From Octopus vulgaris (Eukaryota), in assembly GCA_951406725.2 (NCBI GenBank), contig OX597821.1:37572001-37636000 (forward strand): a stretch of DNA of 64,000 bases, read 5' to 3'. Position 1 is the stretch's first letter. Each line of letters opens with the position of its first letter. Below are positions 9,960-36,748 of this stretch, piece after piece. The notes beneath the pieces were generated by a model that was given only the letters and a program-made list of their open reading frames with translations, did no database searches and had not been told where the DNA came from. The position numbers and the translations under genes were made by a program.

Positions 9960-10600
9960 GAATTTTATGAAGTCGTGGTTATGAAATTTGTGGTTTGATT
10001 ATAGAGTTGTGTCTCCTCCGGTTGTATCCTTCCCTGGAGTTTGGATTTATATCTCTACATGTGGGATACTTTTTATGGTTAATCGGAAGGTGTGCGGCTG
10101 CATCTCCGACTGTTTAGACCCCCTACAAACCAGTTAGATCGATGAGGACGATATTACTCTTACCTGGCGGGAAAACATAGGAAGGTAATAAATTCCAGAG
10201 AGTAGCATCACTGGAGTGGAATGTTTGTAAAATATGTTCGGTACATTGTTTTTGAAGTGAGTCACAACAGGGATTTCAAGAAAGGAGAGGCAGGTGTTTT
10301 GGCTAACTCAGAAGCAGATAATGTACAGCATTATGTTAGTGTAGAAGAATAGAAGTCGCTATAGCAGCAGTTGAATGTGGCGATTGAAAAGCGCAGCTCG
10401 TGTATGAGTGTAGAGATGTTGGAGATTCCTTTTACAGGTGTGTTCTGAAGCGCTTATATAGCATAAATAGAGTGCAAGATTAAGTTTACTGGATTTATTA
10501 AGGACATTACCTGGACGTTTTAGTATTTCTAATAATTCATTGCAGCAAAGTTTACAGCCACACTTATCATTTGTATAGAGTAAGATATGCTTGATTATGC
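9960..10600 (-). pseudogene. Highly decayed retroelement RT remnant, possibly Penelope-like
   Basis: Minus-strand YFTNIP (cf. LYTNIP) and SIPHVEI (cf. IPFLDV) fragments; many stops. Confidence 0.3.
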
Positions 10601-10650
10601 TCCAGGTAATATGGAATTCAACATTTTTATCCGGTTTAAAATCTTACCTG

Positions 10651-10731
10651 CTTAAAATTTTACCTGATGATGGTAATGTTTTATGACTATATTAAATAAA
10701 ATTTTACTGAAACAGCTGTTGCCAATTTTAA
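10651..10731 (+). ncRNA. Type-I hammerhead motif, canonical core, long stem II
   Basis: CTGATGA 10664-10670; stem II ggtaa..gttttat/ataaaat..ttact; GAAAC-agct-GTT; stem I ttaaaatt/aattttaa with an internal mismatch. Confidence 0.65.
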
Positions 10732-10875
10732 ACATTTATACACACACACGTACACATAATTGATAACGACAGAAGCAGTATTAATATCAAAAGGTTATGT
10801 TCATCTCCCACTAAAAGTGATTGTCGTGTGAGAACACAAAACACTACGTTATTTACCATGGGAGAACCTCTTGTA

Positions 10876-10931
10876 TGGACTTGCCATTGACAAGGCTTCG
10901 GAAGCCGAAATCACGTGATCTGGCAGTTCCG
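10876..10931 (+). ncRNA. Type-I hammerhead with U3-A8 core
   Basis: tggacttgcca-TTGACAA-ggctt-cgg-aagcc-GAAA-tcacgtga-TC-tggcagttccg; all three stems pair; predicted cut after C10920. Confidence 0.8.
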
Positions 10932-11189
10932 GTGGCCACAGCGGACGATTATCACCCGTCAGCGACACAAACACGGATGCTTATATGCACCACAAGTCCA
11001 TACGAGAGGTTCTCTCAGATAAATAACATGACATCCTGTGTTCTAACACAACCTCCATTTGAAGCACTTCTGCTTATTCCACGATTACAATCCAGTATGC
11101 ATTTGCTGTCGTTGTATTGCTATGAGGTACATATTAGAGTTGAAAATTCTGGGAATATTGATTGCAGAGTTATATAACAAAACAGTAAG

Positions 11190-11780
11190 TTGGGTTCTGT
11201 GCCAAAATGAAAAGAAGTACAGGAACACTATCGCCCTGGAATATTCCCTTTGAAATGCTTGTACTATCAGAATCAGTTATTCTGTTCTCGGTTCTAAGGG
11301 TAAGAATTGTTGTCCATGCCTTTGTGAGTCTCTCTATAGCAGTAATTAAAGTAGTAGGTACCTTTGCCAGATGTAGGCACTTCAACAACCATGAATGAAG
11401 GATAGAGTCGAATGCATTCTTATAGTCGAGCCATTCTGTCACAAGGTTTCTACGTTGTTTTCTTACTTCAGATAGTACAGCTTTGTTTATTAAAAGTTGT
11501 TCGACATATCCTCACACTCACTTCTTTCTACCAACCTGTTCAAGGGAATCTTATACAAGGACACAGATCGTGTCGTATAGCCAGCTGGAGACGATGTCTC
11601 CTGGGGCTAAATTACAGCAACATTCGTCCTGAACCAGGTCTGCCATGTTATGTTAGCAAAAATCTTTACTCCATCACCCTATCTATTAGAATATTGAATA
11701 TTCTTATACATCGCTTGTCACTATGCTCTTCCATTTTCTTCTTAATTCTACCCTTCTCTTACATTTGGTGCAGAATTATC
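11190..11780 (-). pseudogene. R4/Dong-clade LINE reverse transcriptase fragment
   Basis: EQLLINKAVLSEVRKQRRNLVTEWLDYKNAFDSILHSWL ... KGIFQGDSVPVLLFIL. Confidence 0.85.
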
Positions 11781-11789
11781 AACCATGTC

Positions 11790-12290
11790 ATCTAACCAAT
11801 GTCTTGAACGTCTTTGGAAAGATCTCATCCGACCTCTTGAATGTTACAAGACAAATGCACAAGTTCCCCTGCTGTCTCTGAGAGTCTTGTCACGTGTTCG
11901 GCCCAGCAGAACTCGTGCTTTCAGTATTCTGCGATCATATAATTCACTCCATTCCGTTTGGGACTCTCCGCTTCTCCGATTTGCTTCTCAATTCCTAGCA
12001 TTGGTCTTTGCATGTGTTACAACCAGTCACTGTTCTTTCTTCTTCGCACTGGTACACATCTCATTTGCATATAAGAGTTCAAGTAGGACGGTACCTTTGA
12101 AAAGATTTACCAATTTTTTCAATTGTCCAACAGCGACGTGAATGCATCTTTGATATTTCACTCTGCTCTGATTCTCTTGGAGATTTCAGCGTTCATACCT
12201 TGGTATATATTTACTGTTTGTCCGAAGAAGACATACTTCTCCTTCGCTTCCTTCCGGTCATCTCCTCCCACCACAGTATGGTCTTGTGTG
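11790..12290 (-). pseudogene. RTE-clade LINE C-terminal fragment
   Basis: YVFFGQTVN...EISKRIRAE and WAEHVTR (cf. YVYLGQ...EI.RRI, WAGHV.R). Confidence 0.6.
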
Positions 12291-12582
12291 CTGTGTTTCG
12301 GGTCCGCTTGTATTTTCACGCACGGCTCATTTTGAGGCCTACTGTTGAATACTGGGTGTCCAATTCTCTCAACATGATTTGAAGCTGACCGGATTTTAGT
12401 ACGATGAGAACGATACAACGTTCGATTCGGAGGTATGTTAGTAGCTCATTACCACCTTTCCAATCCATGTGTCTGATGACAATTTCAAGATATGCCGTGG
12501 AGAGCTTTGGAGAGATTTTCGGAGAGATGGAATCGTCTTGTTTAGTTCCTTTCTCGACTGAAATTATCCTGGGTGATGACTA

Positions 12583-12818
12583 CCTATTTCTTTATTACCC
12601 ACAAGGGGCTAAACATAGAAGGGACAAACAAGGACAGACATAGGTATTAAGCCGATTACATCGACCCCAGTGCGGAGTTGGTACTTAATTTATCGAGCCC
12701 GAAAGGATGAAAGGCAAAGTCGACTTCGGCGGAATTTGAACTCAGAACGTAGCGGCAGACGAAATACTGCTGAGCATTTCGCCCGGCGTGCTAACGTTTC
12801 TGCTAGCTCGCCGCCTTA
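12583..12818 (-). mobile_element. Full-length family A SINE with TSD
   Basis: ctgggtgatgactacc at 12569-12584 and 12820-12835. Confidence 0.92.
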
Positions 12819-14167
12819 TCTGGGTGATGACTACCGTCATATCGGTGGTACATCCCAGGTTCACTATCCAGACAAGTTTGACGCAGTGTGCCTCGGTTCT
12901 TTGCTCTCTCTGGAGACTTCAATGCGTTCCCGTTGACACTATAGAAGTCCATTTCTTAATCAATGCAAATGACACAAAAAAGCAACTGATACACTTTTGC
13001 TCGTTCTAGAAGTTGAGTTCGAGGGAACAGGCAGCTTTTTTTTTTACAAGAACTGTAATACGACAGACCACATACAGCTGCACGCTCGCAGCGCACACAC
13101 AATCAAACTGTTTTAAGTAATACGTATGTGTGTGTGTTCTGAAATGATATTGCAATAACGAAACAACACATTGACAATGACCAGCAAGGATTTATTTTTC
13201 AACTTAGAAGTGGTTAAATCACCGTTCATGGTGAATGTGAGGACGACCAAACACGTTGTTTTGTTGTCTATGAAACCCCTATTAATGGCTGCCCGAGGCA
13301 ACAATTCTTTGTTTACTAATATAGATATACTCTACGCAGTGTATTGAGTCCTTTTTCTTTTGCACATACATGCATTTGTGTGTGTATACATACATACATA
13401 CATACATACATACATACATACATACATACGTACATACATACATACACACACACGCATATATGCACACACGTATACACATACATGCGTACAAACATGCACA
13501 CACACGCACCTATACACACACAAATACACACAAACACACAGACATATATGCGTGCGTTTGTATGCAGATTTGTGCATGTGTATATGTATGTGTAAATATA
13601 TATTTTACATTAAGGACGTGTATAATACTGTTTGTTTCACTCGTCTCATTGTTTAGGTACATACCTTGTTTCTTATTCTTTCATTCTTCATTTATTCCTG
13701 TATTCCATTTATCTACGCACACTTCACTTACTGCTGCTACTTCTGCAGCTAGTGCTGCTGCTGTTGTTCTTGTTGCTGTTGTTGTCGGTCTTACCATCCA
13801 ACCTCACACACTCGTAGATGTTTGTATGTATGTACGTGCCGAGAGCTAAGTGATCATTTCCATTTCACAGATATCGGAAATAACCCAACTCTTTTCGCCC
13901 GTCTTCTTCAGCGGGAATCCTTCAACCAAACATTACATCTCTTCTCTCTCTCTTCTCTCCTTCTCTCTCGCTCTCCCTATCTCTCTCGCTCTCTCTCTCT
14001 ATCTCCCACTCTCATTCTGTCTTTCTACAATCCCTTACCTTCACTTCTCTCTCCGTTCCATTATTTCTACTAACCCTAACTTTGTTTCTTTCTCCTTCTC
14101 CTCTCTTCTTTCGCCTCTCTCCCAATCACTCCTCTTCTCGCCCCTCTTTCACATTCCCTCTCTCCTT

Positions 14168-14202
<35 letters not shown>

Positions 14203-14639
14203 ACTCTCATTCTGTCTTTCCTTCACTTCTCTCTCCGTTCCATTATTTCTACTAACCCTAACTTTGTTTCTTTCTCCTTCACCGCTCTTCTTCCGCCTCC
14301 CCCAATCACTCCTCTTTCACATTTTCTCTATCCCTTCACCTCTCTCTCTCTCTCTCTCATCCTTTCACCCTCTTCCACTTCCACTAATTTATTGTCGCAC
14401 TTATTTTCTTTCCCCGTTTCTCTCTTAAAATTACCCCACCCCACACCCCCACCCCAACTCGCTCTCTCTCTTTCTTCCTTTCTCTCTTATTCATTCTTTC
14501 TCTCTCACCGCAATTACCCCCTCCCCCCCCCCTCTTCCAAAGCTTTCATTTCCTATTCCTGTTTTTTTTTTCGTTAGAAATTGCTTTGCCTTTCCTTATT
14601 CCTATCTTTATATCATCTCGACGTACAACACCATTTGCC

Positions 14640-14693
<54 letters not shown>

Positions 14694-14974
14694 ATTATTC
14701 AACTTCACACACACTCTACATCATCCACCCTTCATATTCGATAAACACACACACACACACACACATACACACACACAGATATACACACACACACACACAC
14801 GTGCACTTATGTTTTCTACAGCAATTTTAATAGACCTTCTCTCTCTGTGTCTCTCTGTCTCTCTCTATCTCTCTCTATCTCTCTCTGCCTGTCTGTCTCT
14901 GTCTCTATCTCTCTCTGTCTGTCTGTCTCTCTCCTATATTCAAGCGTACGTTAATGGAGAAATACATACCGAAA

Positions 14975-15265
14975 TATACACACACGTGCGAACGCACACA
15001 CGCACACATACATATAAGCACACGCACACATACATATACACACACGTGCGAGCGCACACACGCACACATACATATAAGCACACGCACACATACATATACA
15101 CACACGTGCGAGCGCACACACGCACACATACATATAAGCACACGCACACATACATATACACACACGTGCGAGCGCACACACGCACACATACATATACACA
15201 CACGCACACATACATATACACACACGTACGAGCGCACACACGCACACATACATATACACACACGT
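14975..15265. repeat. 60-bp minisatellite built from CA/TA/CG microsatellite units
   Basis: Sequence at 15001, 15061, 15121 and 15181 is nearly identical. Confidence 0.9.
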
Positions 15266-16114
15266 GCTAGCGCACACACGCACACATACATATACACACA
15301 CGCACAAATACATATACACACACGCACACATACATATACACACACGCACACATACATATACACACACGCACACATACATATACACACACGCAACACATGC
15401 ATATACACACACGTGCGAGCGCACACACGCACACATACATAAACATACACTTGCGAGCGCACACAAGCACACATACATATACACGCACATATGTGTATAT
15501 ATACATGTGCATATAATCCCTTATTGCAGGTATAAATGTAACTTCTACGCACTAACCGTCAAGAGTTGCTTACTGTTATATTTACATGGCGGATAAAAAT
15601 CACTATATTTGTCATAAGACTCCTTTAGGGTTTATCTATTAATGTTGAGCTAAAAACCCTTCGGGTATTTTTAAAAATATGCATGGAAAACGACTGAATA
15701 CATGATGGTTGAAATCTATAGAAAATAGGGTTTTTCTCTCGCCTCTGTGAGTCGTAAGAAGATTAAATTGGTTAAAGTTATATTCAATCAGAAACCACAT
15801 TTCAGAAAAGAATTCGATTTTGCATTTTTCTTTTCAATTTTGATCTGATTTACCGTTTGTCTAATACTGAATCGCAATTTATGTAATCTAAGTGCTTGTT
15901 TGAGGTAAGCCATACTTCGAAATTAGTATTTCTTCATCTGTTTTTTTTTTTTATTAGAATTTTGGGATTCCTGAAATGGTGAAGCACGACATACGAATAT
16001 CAAATTTCTTAATCCAGTACAAATTCTGGACACTAAAATTGACCAATCTCTGTTTACTTTGACCAAGTTTGTACACTGGAAACGGCCCAACCTATTTGTT
16101 GAAGAACAAACAAT

Positions 16115-16227
16115 GACAGACGAACGGATTAAGTCCATTATATCGACCCCAGTGTGTAACTGGTACTTTATTTATCGACCCCGAGAGGATGAAAGGCAAA
16201 GTCGACCTCGGCGGAATTTGAACTCAG
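16115..16227 (-). mobile_element. Headless family A SINE (left arm of inverted pair)
   Basis: Core and part of the tail; breaks just after the B box. Confidence 0.85.
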
Positions 16228-16400
16228 CTGTTACGTTCTGAGCTCAAATTCTGCCGAGGTCGACTTTGTCTTTCATCCTTTCAGGGTCGATAAATTAAGT
16301 ACCAGTTACACAGTGAGGTCGATATAATCGACTTAATCCGTTTGTCTGTCCTTGTTTGTCCTCTCTGTGTTTAGCCCCTTGTGGGTAGTAAAGAAATAGG
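16228..16400 (+). mobile_element. 5'-truncated family A SINE (right arm)
   Basis: B box through tail gtagtaaagaaatagg. Confidence 0.88.
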
Positions 16401-16677
16401 TATGTAGTTATGCTAAGTGCACTACGGTGAAAGATAGTTCTTGTCAAACAACGACCTAAAAAGTGCAGAGGGATCAAATTAAGAAACGAATTGATGGAGT
16501 AGGGGTCAATAAGTGAAAAATTAGGCTGAGGAATATGAATTAAGGAAGAAAGAATGAATGAAAAATCATTCGTGGCTCGGACTCATTCTCAGTGATTTCT
16601 TTATTCACACAGATTTGAAGACGGAAATATTGACCATCACTGGCAAAAACTAGCATCCCACCACTACGACAACAGCA

Positions 16678-16715
<38 letters not shown>

Positions 16716-16746
16716 CACGACGACGACGACGACCACCACCACCACC

Positions 16747-16821
<75 letters not shown>

Positions 16822-16822
<1 letters not shown>

Positions 16823-17560
16823 GTATTTTTTTCTTGATGATCTCTGACCACTATATCTGGCCTATTGGCCTTAATTTCTCTATCTGTGTGTATTGGCATA
16901 TCTCATAATATGGTTGCTTTCTCATTTTCTGTGACCTTTTCTGGCGTATTCCTATATCATCTTTTTTCTGTTGTTATTTCATAGTGTTGGTATAGCTTCC
17001 TGTTGATATAGATCCCAACTCTGTCGTGTCTGCGAATATATTCCTTCTTAGCCAGGACTGAGCAGCCAGAGATAATATGATTTATTGTTTCTTGTCCATC
17101 TCCACATATTCTGCAGTTACTTGCTATGTTTCTTTTCATTATATGTGTTTGGTAATTTCTGGAGAGGAGGCTTTGGTCTTGTGCTGCAATTAAAAATCCT
17201 TTAGTATCCGCTTTGAGTCCTGAGCTTCTCAAGCATTGCTGGAATTTTGCTTTGTCTATTTCTTTTGCGTTTAAGTTTAACCCAGTATATGCCATGAAGG
17301 GGCTTTCCATGCCATCTTTTTTATCATGGTCCGTTGCTGTTCTAGTCTTAGTTTGGATTTTAATTGCTTTACAGATTTTGTTGCTTCTTTTTCCTCATAG
17401 TTGTTAAGTAGTATGACTTCTTGTTTGCATTTGTCAGCTTCCTGAAAGACTGAAAACAGTTTTTTGTTTTCTTTGTGTTTTGTGGTTATTTGTATTAGCT
17501 TTCCTTGCTTCTGAAGTAGTTGTTTTTGCAGTCCTATGGTGGTTATTTTGTAATTGTTTT
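16822..17560 (-). pseudogene. R4/Dong-type LINE C-terminus (CCHC, RHD, RLE PD motif)
   Basis: AAQDQSL...CRICGDGQETINHIISGC...YIRRHDRVG; TDREIKANRPDIVV. Confidence 0.88.
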
Positions 17561-17644
17561 CTAGCTGTATATATTTCTAGCTATATATCATCATCATCAT
17601 CATCATCATCATTATTATTATTAATATTATTGTTATACTTTCGT

Positions 17645-18105
17645 ATTACCCACTTCAAATCGTCATAGTTGTTTATTTTCCTTCTTTCACATTGATCCTG
17701 TTGTCACCTGGGCATGCTATGTCGATTATCATGCATGTTCTTTCGTTTTTATTCACCATAACAATATCCGGTTTCCGATATCTGGTCAGGTGGTCGCACT
17801 GGATCATTGCATCCCACAGGATTTTGCAATTCTCATTCTTAGAGACTCCTTTTGAGGTTTGCTCATACCATGTCTTTGCTCTTTGTAGGCTATGATTTCC
17901 ACAGAGCTCCCAATAGATCATTCTTGCCACATTGTCACGGCGTCTTTTGTATTCGCTTTATGCCATTTCGGGCATTTGCTAACCATGTGCAATGTCGTTT
18001 CACCCCTATCACCACACATTCGGTATTTGTTGTTGTCGGTAGTGTTGACTATTCTGTACTTCACATAATTGGTCCTTAACGCTTGTTCCTGAGCTGCAAA
18101 AAAGA
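17645..18105 (-). pseudogene. Second R4/Dong-type subfamily C-terminus
   Basis: AAQEQALRTNY...MCGDRGETTLHMVSKC; KILWD...RKPDIV...CMIIDIACPGD. Confidence 0.85.
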
Positions 18106-18839
18106 ACGGGCAGAAACAAATTGAGGCGCGTTGGAGCCAGAGGCCTCTGCATGGACAGTATATACTTCGAAGCCGAAGTGGCTTAGAAGTTCCGGTCTGA
18201 AAGTAGAAACTGAAGGTTTCATATTGTCGGCACAAGATCAAATCTTGCTTACCAAAAACTACCAGTCTAACGTTCTTCACAGCGGTTCTGACCCTAAATG
18301 GTGATTTTGCGATATATTTGATGAAACACTAGACTGTCGCGTCTCGGGATGTCCTGTGCTGACACCAAACGGATACAAAAATTGCTACGATAGGATAGGA
18401 CAGTATTTACATTGGAAAATATGTAAATAATACAAAATCAACAACCCTGCTTACTGCTATGAACATCATCCTGAGCCAGTCGTTGAAGGTAAAGATGTCA
18501 GTATCCTCTGGGATTTTCCAGTCAACACTAACAGAACGATCCAGGCTAATCAACCAGACATAGTCATTAAAGATAGGGAAGAAAATACTTGTAGACAAAT
18601 AAATGTAAGTGTTCCCACGGATAAAAATGCATCCGTAAAGGAATTTGACAAATTAAATAAATATAACATAAGGGGGATCAGCCATCTGAATGTGGCTAGG
18701 GTCAGGGCGGGGTGGTGGGGGGTGTTACTGATGCATTTAGCCCCAGGCGAACATCAACGTCACCAGAAGGGCTGACACCATCTCGGTGTCCTTGCCAGCC
18801 TGCAAAGGGAGATCAGCCTCCCCGAAGATACGGATACTA

Positions 18840-18882
18840 CACACGGACCGGTTTCGAGGTTATTGCCTCTTGTCAACGTATG
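18840..18882 (-). ncRNA. Type-I hammerhead, U3-A8 core (unit 1)
   Basis: Minus: catacg-TTGACAA-gagg-caataa-cctc-GAAAC-cg-GTC-cgtgtg. Confidence 0.8.
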
Positions 18883-19200
18883 GTAAGCACCGCTCTTCGT
18901 TGAGGGACTTCCCCTACAGGCTGGATATATAGGGATTTTCACAGTAACCACAGTCACTGGCGTAGAAAATCCGTTCGAAAACAATAATAAATCTCTGAGC
19001 GAGATATAAACAGTAACTGCTCTATAACATAAGGGGGATCAGCCATCTGAATGTTGCTAGGGTCAGGGCGGGGTGGTGGGGGGTGTTACTGATGCATTTA
19101 GCCCCAGGCGAACATCAACGTCACCAGAAGGGCTGACACCATCTCGGTGTCCTTGCCAGCCTGCAAAGGGAGATCAGCCTCCCCGAAGATACGGATACTA

Positions 19201-19243
19201 CACACGGACCGGTTTCGAGGTTATTGCCTCTTGTCAACGTATG
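19201..19243 (-). ncRNA. Type-I hammerhead, U3-A8 core (unit 2)
   Basis: Identical to 18840-18882. Confidence 0.8.
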
Positions 19244-20447
19244 GTAAGCACCACTCTTCGTTGAGGGACTTCCCCTACAGGCTGGATATATAGGGATTTT
19301 CACAGTAACCACAGTCACTGGCGTAGAAAATCCGTTCGAAAACAATAATAAATCTCTGAGCGAGATATAAATAAATATAAGGATCTGGAAATTGAAATAC
19401 AAAATATGTGGCATCTTAAAGCGAGAACCGTTCCTATTATTGTGGGTGCCCTAGTTATGATAAGAAAGACCCTATCAATTTAAATGTCTGTGTTCTATTA
19501 CATGAAGGTATTTCGCTACTGCCTCTGCCGCTTTCCCCCCCCCCCAAGCTTTCAGTCATACTGTAACATCTCATAACCTTCACTCGCCCTAGGACTGGGT
19601 GTGTCGCGGCAAGTGATTGTAACAAACATGCAGATTAAAAGGAAATGATGATGATGTGCGTGCTTTAGGTGTATTACTAGGGTGAAAGAAAAGAGATAAA
19701 CTAAAAATTAAATAAAATCGTCTTCCAAAAAATACTTAAAGTGAAGGGAGACTGAAGATGGAAAAAGAGAGAAGAGACATAAGCTGGCAGATAGACAGAC
19801 AGACAGGGAGTAGAATGGGGAAAGGTGGGGGGTAAAAAAGGGTAGTAAGGAGTTTGTAGATGAGAGTGAATCAGAATGTATAAAAATTAAACAAAAAAAT
19901 TAAGGCATCTTCTTATATTTAAAACTGGACAGCATTAAACTGGAGGTTATCATTTTTAAGCGAAACAGTGGTATTTTGGCTGGTTCTTGTTTATTTTTAT
20001 TATTGTTATTTTTTTTTTGTTTTGTTGTTTAATGCTAGCAACGTTAGATTCTTAGCTGACATCATGATATTTGAAATACTGCTTCACTATTTACACACCA
20101 TGATATTTAATTTTTCTCTTATATTTGTTTCGTTTTTTATTGTAATTTATCCGTTTTTAATATTTCTGCAGAGTCAACCACAAAACTGCATTTCAGTTTC
20201 CGAGTTCTTTTGATGCTTAAAATTTCATTATGGCAATGACATCTCTCAATCGCAACCTTATCTTCGTCATGTTTTCAGCTCACGAAATATTTTTTCCCAG
20301 TTCCTCTACGTCTTTAACTGCAGATACGGAACATTCTGGGAAAATGTGGTTGCCTATTGTAGGCAGAAAATTCATCGGAATGTTCGATCATCAATAAAGT
20401 AAAAGTATTAATATTCTAATGCCTGAGATTTTGGGGGAGATTTGGTG

Positions 20448-23285: not shown

Positions 23286-24763
23286 TTGTCTATAAAGTCT
23301 TTAACTGACCAGCAGGGGCGCAAGATTTATGGACAGGAAATGATGCAAAAGGCCTTTCACCAACATTACGCTCGGTTGTTCGGGGAGAGCAGCGCGCTTG
23401 AGCGTGGGGAGCCCTTAAAGTACTTCCTAGCCGGTGGGCCGCGACTCTCAGCACGGGAAGCGGAATGCTGTGAAGGACCGATTACTCCTGCGGAGGTAAA
23501 AGAGGTGCTGGCCGAGTGCGCCGGGGACAAGGCACCGGGACTCGATGGTCTACCCTATGAGTTTTATCGTATATGCCGGACTTGTTTGGGGACCTACTGG
23601 CCAACGTGTACACAAACTGGCAACAGAATGGGTGGATTCCCAGCTCTGTGAGTCGGGGAGTGGTGACGCTGATCCAGAAGGATCCGAGCAAGGGGGATAA
23701 TATTAGTAACTATAGGCCCATAACTCTACTTGACGTAGAGCTAAAGAGTTTGGCCGGGACGTTATCCAAAAGGTTGACGCGTGTTGCGGAAAAACTTGTA
23801 GGCAGGTTGATCCAGGACAATCTTCACCTTATATGCTACACCTTAGACAGGTTGGGTAAATTAACCAGCAAAGGTGGGACAATGGTCCGTTTAGAACAAA
23901 GTAAAGCGTTTGATAGGGTAGACCACCAGTACCTGGCGGCGGTCCTCGAAGCGGCTGGGCTGGGCCTGGACTTCCGTAGGCGGATCTCCGCCTTGTATAG
24001 CGTCATCAAATCCACCGTCCAGATAAACGGCTACTTGTTGGAGCCATTTTCGATCAAGCGTTCAGTTCGTCGAAGCTGTTCCCTGTCTCCGCTTCTGTAT
24101 GTGTTGGCTCTTGAGCCATTGCTGCGGAAGTTGGACAAGTTGGGAGGCAACCCTAATGAAATCGGATGCGGTAAGTCGGTCTCCACTTATGCGGATGAAG
24201 TTACCTTCATCGTGTCCAATGAAGCGCAGCTACCTTGTGTAGAGGACGCTATTAAAGGATACGAGGCAGTGGCAGGGGCAAAAGTTAACAAGGACAAGTC
24301 CATCGGCTTGTGCCCCGGCACCTGGAGGAGCAAGTCGATATCGTCCAGTGTCGTGGGTCACTGGACAGACAGACCTGTAAAGTTGATTGGAGTTTGGTTT
24401 GGACCGGACTCCCAGACGGAGAAGAATTGGAGCGAGGTGGCAGACAAGGTGGAGGTTCTAGTCCGGACTCGGTCCGGAATGGCTCTGTCCTTGAAAGGAA
24501 GAGCGGAGGTGGTAGAGGTGTTTATTGCATCTGTCATCACCTACCGCCTGACCGTTGTCACTTGCATCGATTCGTGGCTAAACAAGTTGGAACGCCTCCT
24601 CTACCGCTTTTTGTGGAAGGGAGGAAACCCACTTGTGAGGCGCTTTGTTTGCTACCAGGAATCGCTAAAGGGAGAGCAAGATAGGGCTGGAGAGGAGAAT
24701 CCTGTCGTGAAGTGTGTTCGAGAAACGATGGAAGGCTGTGATAAGAAAGGTGGGTGCTCGTAA
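23286..24763 (+). pseudogene. Tx1/L1-clade LINE reverse transcriptase, frameshifted and internally deleted
   Basis: KAPGLDGLPYEFY, NYRPITLL, SKAFDRVDH, SLSPLLYVLALEPLL, YADE (normally YADD); frameshift near 23570. Confidence 0.92.
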
Positions 24764-26384: not shown

Positions 26385-27659
26385 TCAGTTAGCAAGCCAC
26401 GCCTTTTTCTTCTGCGATACGTCGATATCGACATTTTTGCTAGCCTATGTTATGTGTGTTTATTTCTGTCTGTTCCTTGTTTATTTGTGTTATTGTGAAA
26501 AATCTTGATTGGATTTGAACTGTTGTCTTTTGATAAACAGTAATTTTCGCCCTTCAGGGTGGAAAATTTCTGTTAATTCTCTATTTGAAAATTTATTGTG
26601 AAAAATTGTGAACTGTTGTTTTTTTCTTTTTACTCTCTTCGCTTAATTTATTCTGAAAATTTTTGCGTCATTCGTTATGGAATTTAATATGAACTCAGGT
26701 CACATGTTATAGATGTATGCATAGTAACTGAGTCCAAGATGAGTGGACCACAAGCGTTCTCGCCTATCTTGAATGGCTGTGAGAAATTTATTTCTCCTAG
26801 CCGACAAGGAGGTGGGTGGGCGTGGCGGTCTTATTCAGGAAGAACTTGGACGTACAGGTAAGTACAGTCTTTCTAGACCCAGAAGGTAGGCTGGTTGTCC
26901 TGGATGTGACACATGTGAGTAAACAGTCCTTCAGGCTGGTAGCTGTCTACACTACTAAGGAGGGTAGACAGTCTGGTTTTTATCGAGACCTGGAGCACTG
27001 TCTCGTGACGTCATCAACGATAGTTCTGTTAGGCGACTTTAAATCTATCTTCGATGCACGGGTGGATAGTCTTGGCTCGACTGATAGAAAGGGAAACCCT
27101 GGCCTCAAGGGTTTCCTAGAGAGCTTTAATCTAGTAGACCATTACAGACTGGATGTGCCGTTCGTTCCACAGTGGACGTGGAGTAATAACGACGGCTCAC
27201 GCAGATCTTACATGGATGGGGTATTCGTTAGAGATAGAGATAGGGATACTTTTAGTTGTCCACAATTTTGTATTGTACCTTACACAGATCACAAATTTGT
27301 AATGTGTGAGGTACATATAGATAAATGTCATAGACAGGGACCCGGGTACTGGAAGATGAAGCGAATGCCGTCGCGAAGTGTGTTTGAGGAAAGATGGAAG
27401 TCTGTATTAAGAAATGTGGGTGCTAGTAATCCTCCTTAATCTGCATTGGGAGAAAAAATAGGAAAGGGGTATCTGCTGGGCCTTTTAAATAACCGGGCAT
27501 AATCTCCTCCCCAGAAAGGAAAATAAAAACGACTATAATATAAAATTCATCTTTTCATTAAAATTTTTAAATAAGGTTCATTCGAACTCACATTAACTTT
27601 ATTTGTATGTATTGTCCTGTGCTATATCATCTATATGTGACATTATTGTCTTACAAAAT
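26385..27659 (+). mobile_element. Internally deleted Tx1-type copy 3 with APE endonuclease domain
   Basis: ORF 26816-27439: GVAVLF, DPEGR, LLGDF, WTWSN, TDHK, GPGYWKM, then a jump to the C-terminus and 3' UTR. Confidence 0.88.
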
Positions 27660-35240: not shown

Positions 35241-35243
35241 AGG

Positions 35244-36748
35244 GAAGATGCTAATGATGCTGAGTACAGGCAGTGAAGGGGAAGATGCTAATGATGCTGA
35301 GTACGGGCAGTGAAGGGGAAGATGCTAATGATGCTGAGTACGGGCAGTGAAGGCGAAGATGCTAATGATGCTGAGTACGGGCAGTGAAGGTGAAGACGCT
35401 AATGATGCTGAGTACGGGCAGTGATGGGGAAGATGCTAATGATGCTGAGTACGGGCAGTGAAAGGGAAGACGCTAATGATGCTGAGTATGGGCAGTGAAG
35501 GGGAAGATGCTAATGATGCTGAGTACGGGCAGTGAAGGGGAAGATGCTAATGATGCTGAGTACGGGCAGTGAAGAGGAAGATAATAATGATGCTGAGTAC
35601 GGGCAGTGAAGGGGAAGATGCTAATGATGCTGAGTACGGGCAGTGAGGGGGAAGATGCTAATGATGCTGAGTACGGGCAGTGATGGGGAAGACGCTAATG
35701 ATGCTGAGTACGGGCAGTGATGGGGAAGACGCTAATGATGCTGAGTACGGGCAGTGAAGGGGAAGATGCTAATGATGCTGAGTACGGGCAGTGATGGGGA
35801 AGATGCTAATGAATCTGAGTAAGGGCAGTGAAGGGGAAGACGCTAATGATGCTGAGTACGGGCAGTGAGGGGGAAGATGCTAATGATGCTGAGTACGGGC
35901 AGTGAAGGGGAAGATGCTAATGATGCTGAGTATGGGCAGTGAAGGGGAAGATGCTAATGATGCTGAGTACGGGCAGTGAAGGGGAAGATGCTAATGATGC
36001 TGAGTACGGGCAGTGAAGGGGAAGATGCTAATGATGCTGAGTACGGGCAGTGAAGAGGAAGATAATAATGATGCTGAGTACGGGCAGTGAAGGGGAAGAT
36101 GCTAATGATGCTGAGTACGGGCAGTGATGGGGAAGATGCTAATGATGCTGAGTACGGGCAGTGATGGGGAAGACGCTAATGATGCTGAGTACGGGCAGTG
36201 ATGGGGAAGACGCTAATGATGCTGAGTACGGGCAGTGAGTGGGAAGATGCTAATGATGCTGAGTACGGGCAGTGAAGGGGAAGATGCTAATGATGCTGAG
36301 TACGGGCAGTGAAGGGGAAGATGCTAATGATGCTGAGTACGGGCAGTGAAAGGGAAGATGCTAATGATGCTGAGTACGGGCAGTGAAGGGGAAGACGCTA
36401 ATGATGCTGAGTACAGGCAGTGAAGGGGAAGATGCTAATGATGCTGAGTACGGGCAGTGAAGGGGAAGATGCTAATGATGCTGAGTACGGGCAGTGAAGG
36501 GGAAGACGCTAATGATGCTGAGTACGGGCAGTGAAGGGGAAGATGCTAATGATGCTGAGTACGGACAGTGAAGAGAAAGACGCTAATGATGCTGAGTACG
36601 GGCAGTGAAGGGGAAGATGCTAATGATGCTGAGTACGGACAGTGAAGGGAAAGACGCTAATGATGCTGAGTACGGGCAGTGAAGGAGAAGACGCTAATGA
36701 TGCTGAGTACGGGCAGTGAAGGCGAAGGTGTAACTGACGCTGAGTACG
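35244..36748. repeat. 37-bp minisatellite, 40 full units plus 1 diverged unit
   Basis: Unit GAAGATGCTAATGATGCTGAGTACGGGCAGTGAAGGG; unit 40 starts at 36687 = 35244 + 39 x 37. Confidence 0.97.

Follow-up and report, generated by a model that had tools for sequence, protein, structure and literature searches.

An old retrozyme-kind hammerhead repeat in an octopus genome, and a hairpin probably derived from its inverted downstream duplicate

The window analyzed herein, i.e., the whole stretch of 64,000 nucleotides of Octopus vulgaris DNA, belongs to a microsatellite-rich genome of 2.8 Gb and contains a decayed copy of a circularly permuted repeat of 345 nt with a type I hammerhead, of the non-LTR retrozyme kind. 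Very probably, this copy is old, and the long hairpin surrounding its hammerhead is an inverted duplicate of the downstream part of the element, likely generated during insertion by the enzymes of a Penelope-like element (PLE), rather than a selected switch. The repeat unit, its circular permutation, the head-to-head layout at this and 22 other loci, and the covariation within the ribozyme are direct observations. The initial annotation of the region had described a possible switchable ribozyme, in which the hairpin sequesters stem I of the hammerhead and cleavage would be possible only co-transcriptionally before being locked off, as in viroid and retrozyme RNAs.

The type I hammerhead motif is read directly from the sequence at 10876-10931 on the plus strand. 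Stem I is formed by 10876-10886 and 10921-10931 (11 positions, with one C-U mismatch and two G-U pairs), and the remaining parts comprise the catalytic core strand with U3 and A8 (10887-10893, assigned from the sequence and from the family counts of the 3-8 pair), stem-loop II (10894-10906), the GAAA (10907-10910), palindromic stem III (10910-10919), and a UH site, with cleavage predicted by the hammerhead consensus between 10920 (C17) and 10921, after AUC. Three helices thus surround a core with a Watson-Crick 3-8 pair, stem I being open, and the hammerhead is not the lowest-energy fold of the window copy. The 10-nt palindrome would form 3 bp with a 4-nt loop in a monomer and 10 bp in a dimer. 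A strict hammerhead descriptor yielded three matches in the window vs. 0.01 per shuffled window (100 shuffles), and the complete motif of the initial annotation, with an 11-position stem I containing one mismatch and an AUC site, is confirmed by both sequence and descriptor. Rfam returned no match at the gathering score, nor at E ≤ 5 over 10000-20000, which provides no support in either direction. Stem-loop II is altered in the window copy: alignment with the consensus reveals three substitutions and one deletion, the native loop is gone, and the pairing of the stem is retained. A 32-nt pattern across this stem is unique in the genome at two or fewer mismatches, and no subfamily sharing it was found at this tolerance. 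In the consensus, stem I contains a 3×1 internal loop and loop II has 6 nt, whereas the window copy has a 1×1 mismatch and a changed loop; because the native bases of loops 1 and 2 are lost, the window hammerhead would likely cut slowly, if transcribed at all. Furthermore, the copy is unable to release a unit circle because it has only one hammerhead. Among the assembled contigs listed for two runs guessed to be RNA, repeat pieces were found, none of them from the hammerhead locus, a result that speaks neither for nor against its expression.

Dispersed homologs of the region were found in the genome (56 matches from the 40 of 619 candidates that were scored), the main matches having 71–83% identity. 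Reconstruction from 55 loci gave the 345-nt unit, whose numbering begins at the cleavage site. After five homolog searches, and once repeated places had been taken out, the family set comprises 100 distinct loci (one search added 13 of its 25 loci and another 11 of its 30, the remainder being treated as repeats). The unit is non-coding, carries one type I hammerhead, and lies within the approximately 150–450 nt of non-LTR retrozymes. The copies cross the cleavage site at 92/100 loci, have varied start points in the unit, and include a piece longer than one unit at 45/100 loci, as would be expected from reverse transcription of circular or multimeric RNA. Most copies have only one hammerhead, two hammerheads one unit apart being found at 2/100 loci (L166 and L172), and the window copy is a sub-unit fragment; no long tandem arrays were seen among the 100 loci. 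The link to retrozymes drawn previously is therefore upheld by the 345-nt unit and by its permuted and longer-than-unit copies. The median identity of the copies to the consensus is 81%, and the family is therefore old. A 5′-truncation hotspot just upstream of the core was also considered and dropped, many of the apparent ends belonging to a subfamily with a different upstream sequence.

Copy-to-copy covariation supports the hammerhead at its 3-8 pair and in stems I and II. In 96 family segments, the combinations at positions 3 and 8 are U-A (68), C-G (nine), C-A (13), and U-G (three); pair 2 of stem II is swapped between G-C (51) and C-G (18), with five mixed, and pair 4 of stem I between G-C (38) and A-U (20). 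The corresponding p-values (7e-5 for the 3-8 pair, 2e-12 for stem II pair 2, and 1e-3 for stem I pair 4) are descriptive only, since the copies are related and the counts reflect few master variants, and the signal persists in the 76 segments left after removal of the motif-selected loci. The view that U3-A8 is compensatory is accordingly borne out by the family and by published cases (PMC3088659; PMC4209133). C3-A8 mismatched cores were additionally observed in 10/63 segments; position 7 is C in eight of these ten, a pattern compatible with CpG decay starting from a C3-G8 master. In an alignment of 37 copies, 82.6% of the cells of the hammerhead and its rod are paired vs. 34–51% in slid controls, although the counted structure came from the consensus and is thereby favored over these controls; its covariation score was matched by 0/500 shuffles. 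RNAalifold recovered stem II alone from the 37 copies because the old copies are decayed. In the family consensus fold, stem I is lengthened into a rod of approximately 40 bp, and the rod of a second subfamily, of different sequence, keeps the pairing. The lock resembling that of viroid and retrozyme RNAs is not reproduced by this fold, which lengthens stem I and does not block it, in agreement with the unblocked hammerheads published for most animal retrozyme circles (PMC7229834).

The hairpin itself is present as claimed, with its inner and outer helices. The inverted repeat arms at 10859-10883 and 10993-11017 (25 nt) are 92% complementary, the outer helices 10848-10855/11020-11027 and 10826-10838/11037-11049 occur in the minimum free energy (MFE) fold of 10820-11055, and this fold has z = −8.6, with equally good folds in 0/200 shuffles. 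However, the feature is larger than the 10826-11049 first assigned to it and consists of two pieces of the unit in opposite orientations. The inverted 5′-truncated piece (10756-10883, minus strand; unit positions 73-200 from the cleavage site) has 88% identity to the family consensus over 128 nt, lacks a hammerhead, and is the source of the 5′ arm of the hairpin, reading the unit from 200 back to 73. The sense piece (10882-11060, plus strand) covers unit positions 306-345 and then 1-141, crosses the cleavage site, and has an identity of 87% with the consensus across 181 nt and of 71–83% with other genomic copies; in the alignments, the 3′ arm of the hairpin (10993-11052, plus strand) corresponds to unit positions 73-133, which belong to the ordinary repeat. 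At the inversion junction, the end of the inverted arm (10876-10883, plus strand), comparison with the native upstream sequence reveals a 2-nt overlap and a 5-nt match to the replaced native 5′ strand of stem I. The inverted arm thus substitutes for the native upstream strand of the rod, resulting in a chimeric stem I, which pairs so well because the arm end resembles the native stem I strand. A short AC-rich microsatellite (10738-10757) beside the end of the inverted arm is the likely insertion target. The junction is not an assembly artefact, since 10641-11007 is crossed without gaps by a contig from a run bearing a different organism label.

Regarding the claim that hairpin and hammerhead exclude each other, the long helix occupies eight of the 11 stem I positions, and mutual exclusion holds for the full stem I in the fold model but not for a 6-bp stem I, which is retained in a constrained fold alongside a long helix shortened by 3 bp. 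The cost of folding the window hammerhead is 5.2–6.8 kcal/mol without the far arm and 8.8 kcal/mol with it, compared with 1.6 kcal/mol for the consensus in its rod and 5.8 kcal/mol in a longer context. A young 361-nt retrozyme family, introduced below, scores 8.0 kcal/mol under a like constraint and tertiary contacts are outside the model, so that folding cost is a weak predictor of activity, and these modelled costs do not show that the window hammerhead is inactive.

The initial annotation can be restated in an evolutionary form, in which a chance PLE-type inversion was later kept by the host as a co-transcriptional switch in a passing transcript, the hairpin locking off the hammerhead after cutting. 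Such retention would suit the intact core, which is found in the window copy and in 19/63 family segments overall, the retained pairing of the altered stem II, and the removal of the distal stem I by the far arm in the fold model. In that model, however, the probability of the distal stem I falls from 0.78 when the transcript ends at 10935 to 0.004 when it ends at 10950, so that this part is already lost before the far arm is synthesized, stem II has a probability of at most 0.053 at all transcript ends, and the far arm contributes just 2–4 kcal/mol on top of a cost of 5–7 kcal/mol. The window copy also diverges less from the consensus than the family average predicts, both in the hammerhead (4 differences in 50 nt vs. 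9.8 expected) and in the inner arms (1 difference over 22 nt vs. 3.5 and 2 over 20 nt vs. 3.1), as well as over the whole sense piece (24 in 181 vs. 34.5), although some of the loci behind the consensus were chosen because they resemble the window, and the family is a mixture of subfamilies; together with the paired stem II, this low divergence would be compatible with weak constraint. The junction is likewise kept in the differently labelled organism, where it has five differences over 367 nt and the flanking contigs of that run have 18 over 873 nt, but these changes are too few to show constraint. The homologs speak against a conserved switch more directly. At the 23 loci with inversions, 16 hammerheads at 14 loci are alignable, and the 5′ strand of stem I pairs with the far arm over eight bases in the window copy, compared with zero or one in the other 15 hammerheads, i.e., the layout exists in 1/16. 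The two arms have drifted apart, with 48/60 positions identical and each approximately 13% from the consensus, and the competing hairpin helix is not kept across the homologs, in which the hammerhead covaries. An evolved switch is consequently not sustained, the 5′ arm being the element's own downstream part, inverted and fused to the sense piece within stem I through a short microhomology, and later retention by the host appears very improbable.

Across the family, head-to-head inversions occur at 23/100 loci, with scattered junctions, and tail-to-tail inversions at 0/100; the window query is biased toward inverted copies, and a sample selected by the core motif only gives 6/26 head-to-head. 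A long, imperfect inverted repeat with arms of about 60 bp is also what a MITE with terminal inverted repeats would display, the hammerhead then being a chance look-alike, and a plain MITE had been named as the alternative to the ribozyme. Nevertheless, 77/100 loci have no adjacent inverted piece, the arm ends vary instead of forming fixed terminal repeats in all copies, and the homologs retain a hammerhead that covaries, making a MITE exceedingly unlikely. The 3′ ends of the 345-nt family are concentrated at unit positions 140-179 (52/131) and 190-215 (50/131), two preferred ends about 45 nt apart, and microsatellites lie beyond 25/131 of these ends vs. 223/2000 random flanks (19% vs. 11%), a weak enrichment. 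Dual 3′ ends and inverted 5′ copies match PLE insertions, to judge from the footprint, for which partial tandems, an inverted 5′-truncated copy, a 30–40 bp tail, and microsatellite targets have been described (10.1101/2021.04.23.441226).

The footprint is clearer in the young family, of which a dimer is located at 18662-19371 on the minus strand of the window, comprising the 361-nt unit twice and two U3-A8 type I hammerheads with cores at 19237 and 18876. This family is unrelated to the 345-nt family; 103 matches were obtained from the 40 of 1964 candidates that were scored, many in arrays, and the best copies are 95–99% identical. As a source of active circles, it is a stronger candidate than the 345-nt window copy. 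In a sample of 20 loci, 18 of them distinct, an end at position 182-184 is found in 18/18, an inverted 5′-truncated head-to-head piece in 10/18, its other end at 225-229, and about 15 of the 18 adjoin (TA)n as judged by eye; a tail at one end and a microsatellite target are thus clear in the young family, whereas the 345-nt family has two end clusters and weak enrichment. In 10/10 inversions of the young family, the outer ends are fixed approximately 43 nt apart. That regularity, together with the strict polarity of the 345-nt family (23 head-to-head vs. 0 tail-to-tail), argues against inversion after insertion, through fold-back repair or recombination of neighbouring copies instead of during reverse transcription; the short microhomologies at the junctions are used by repair pathways too, but such an origin is hardly to be expected.

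The genome contains elements with reverse transcriptase (RT) plus a GIY-YIG endonuclease at the C-terminal end. One PLE family of this type (L117 and the related L115-L140) has (TA)n targets, a 781-aa open frame at at least 16 places, an optional tail of approximately 35 nt, and a U3-A8 hammerhead-like motif close to the 3′ end. By pattern matching, a U3-A8 core motif is present near the end in 19/30 GIY-YIG loci, mostly followed by (TA)n and in five cases with an extra tail. A third kind of type I hammerhead is found at L129 (position 27, plus strand), again with a U3-A8 core, and U3-A8 cores seem to be common in the genome. A broken PLE fragment with RT and endonuclease (L034, 147-988, minus strand) lies approximately 500 nt past the 3′ end of a 361-nt array; both adjoin (TA)n, which may reflect shared targeting rather than linkage.

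PLE pseudo-LTRs bear type I hammerheads, U3-A8 included, as in Cercyon of Schistosoma (PMC4209133), and in Xenopus retrozymes are related to pseudo-LTRs (2026 preprint, 10.64898/2026.07.22.740005); since the inversion layout is also the same, the repeat could be the pseudo-LTR of an autonomous PLE and its copies the 5′-truncated 3′ ends of that element, not an independent retrozyme. The copies here, however, run round into their own unit and not into an open reading frame, as exemplified by the 45/100 that exceed one unit. No RT or endonuclease was found within 1.5 kb of 66 family loci with the longest frames of nine GIY-YIG loci as queries, the short matches in this search tracing to the N-terminal 40 residues of a single frame, which also match the window elsewhere and are apparently a common repeat. 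Neither retrozyme family has sequence homology to the 30 GIY-YIG loci sampled, and in these loci and the 1.5-kb flanks the repeat was not found as part of a PLE. The pseudo-LTR reading is accordingly considered improbable. Because no sequence homology joins the retrozyme families to PLE loci, mobilization by PLEs is deduced from the insertion footprint.

For an old retrozyme copy inverted in the course of a PLE-type insertion, the following sequence of events is proposed. Ancestral tandem transcripts would have cut themselves at each hammerhead, and the resulting unit-length RNA would have been closed into a circle. The RT and GIY-YIG endonuclease of a PLE may then have cut the target twice and primed two cDNAs approximately 45 nt apart, the first of which would have run through the cleavage site and halted 5 nt past the core, and the second halted at unit position 73. 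The two cDNAs would then have been joined by their 5′ ends at a short microhomology, which by chance lay in the 5′ strand of stem I, and both the chimeric stem I and an arm able to pair with stem I would have resulted.

Several further features lie elsewhere in the window. A very high-copy short repeat at 11553-11660, possibly a SINE, has a summed contig depth approximately 10,000 times that of the single-copy flank in run X1 and is deep in both guessed-RNA runs too. Retrotransposon fragments occur at 23561-24763 (plus), 26801-27439 (plus), and 16957-17394 (minus), with RVT_1 above the cut-off and endonuclease and zf-RVT below it, and a host gene search with 14 of the 103 long frames of the window yielded RT and endonuclease fragments only. 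A 37-nt minisatellite of about 41 copies (94%) spans 35242-36748. A strong hairpin at 16187-16278 has a weak miRNA-model match under the cut-off and is likely a common repeat, similar sequence recurring in the flanks of many loci.

These observations have three implications. Hairpins over animal retrozyme hammerheads are possible by-products of insertion and should be compared with the family before being called switches; PLE-type insertion footprints are present in two unrelated retrozyme families of one genome; and the young 361-nt family and the coexisting PLEs with long frames constitute a usable pair for a direct test of mobilization. The mover of animal retrozymes has previously been argued from co-occurrence and pseudo-LTR homology (PMC7229834; PMC7761336; 10.64898/2026.07.22.740005), PLEs being named as the likely movers (PMC7229834). 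In the literature searched, covering few subscription papers and no supplements, neither these families nor inversion footprints of retrozymes were described.

Compared with known systems, the 345-nt family is an ordinary case of a known kind. Like the animal non-LTR retrozymes (Cervera and de la Peña, 2020, PMC7229834), of approximately 350–390 bp in mussel, it has a non-coding unit (345 nt) with one type I hammerhead, a self-paired predicted circle in which stems I and II remain formed, copies longer than the unit, and many dispersed monomers. It differs from them in its age, in the scarcity of two-hammerhead loci, and in having U3-A8 as the majority core; its inverted 5′ pieces have no counterpart mentioned in the available text of PMC7229834. 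Like those of PLEs (Craig et al., 10.1101/2021.04.23.441226), the insertions are 5′-truncated, include partial tandems, begin with an inverted 5′-truncated copy, have their tail at one end only, and lie at microsatellite targets, whereas the retrozyme repeat, unlike PLEs, has no open reading frame and no homology to the sampled PLE loci, and its tail is approximately 43–45 nt vs. the 30–40 bp stated for PLEs. In viroid and plant LTR-retrozyme RNAs, as here, a complementary segment is able to pair with bases of the hammerhead stems; most animal retrozyme circles, unlike those of viroids and plant retrozymes, are predicted with the hammerhead unblocked (PMC7229834), and the block that is general in the latter occurs here in one copy and outside the unit fold of the family. 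Finally, the U3-A8 core is an already published natural variant, active in vitro (Perreault et al., 2011, PMC3088659; PMC4209133), and a palindromic helix III with a dimer model has been described as well (PMC4209133). The hammerheads of the 345-nt family share with the published U3-A8 examples the identical compensatory change at the 3-8 pair and differ from them in that the type I motif is complete and its stem III palindromic, and in the presence of both U3-A8 and C3-G8 cores within one family.
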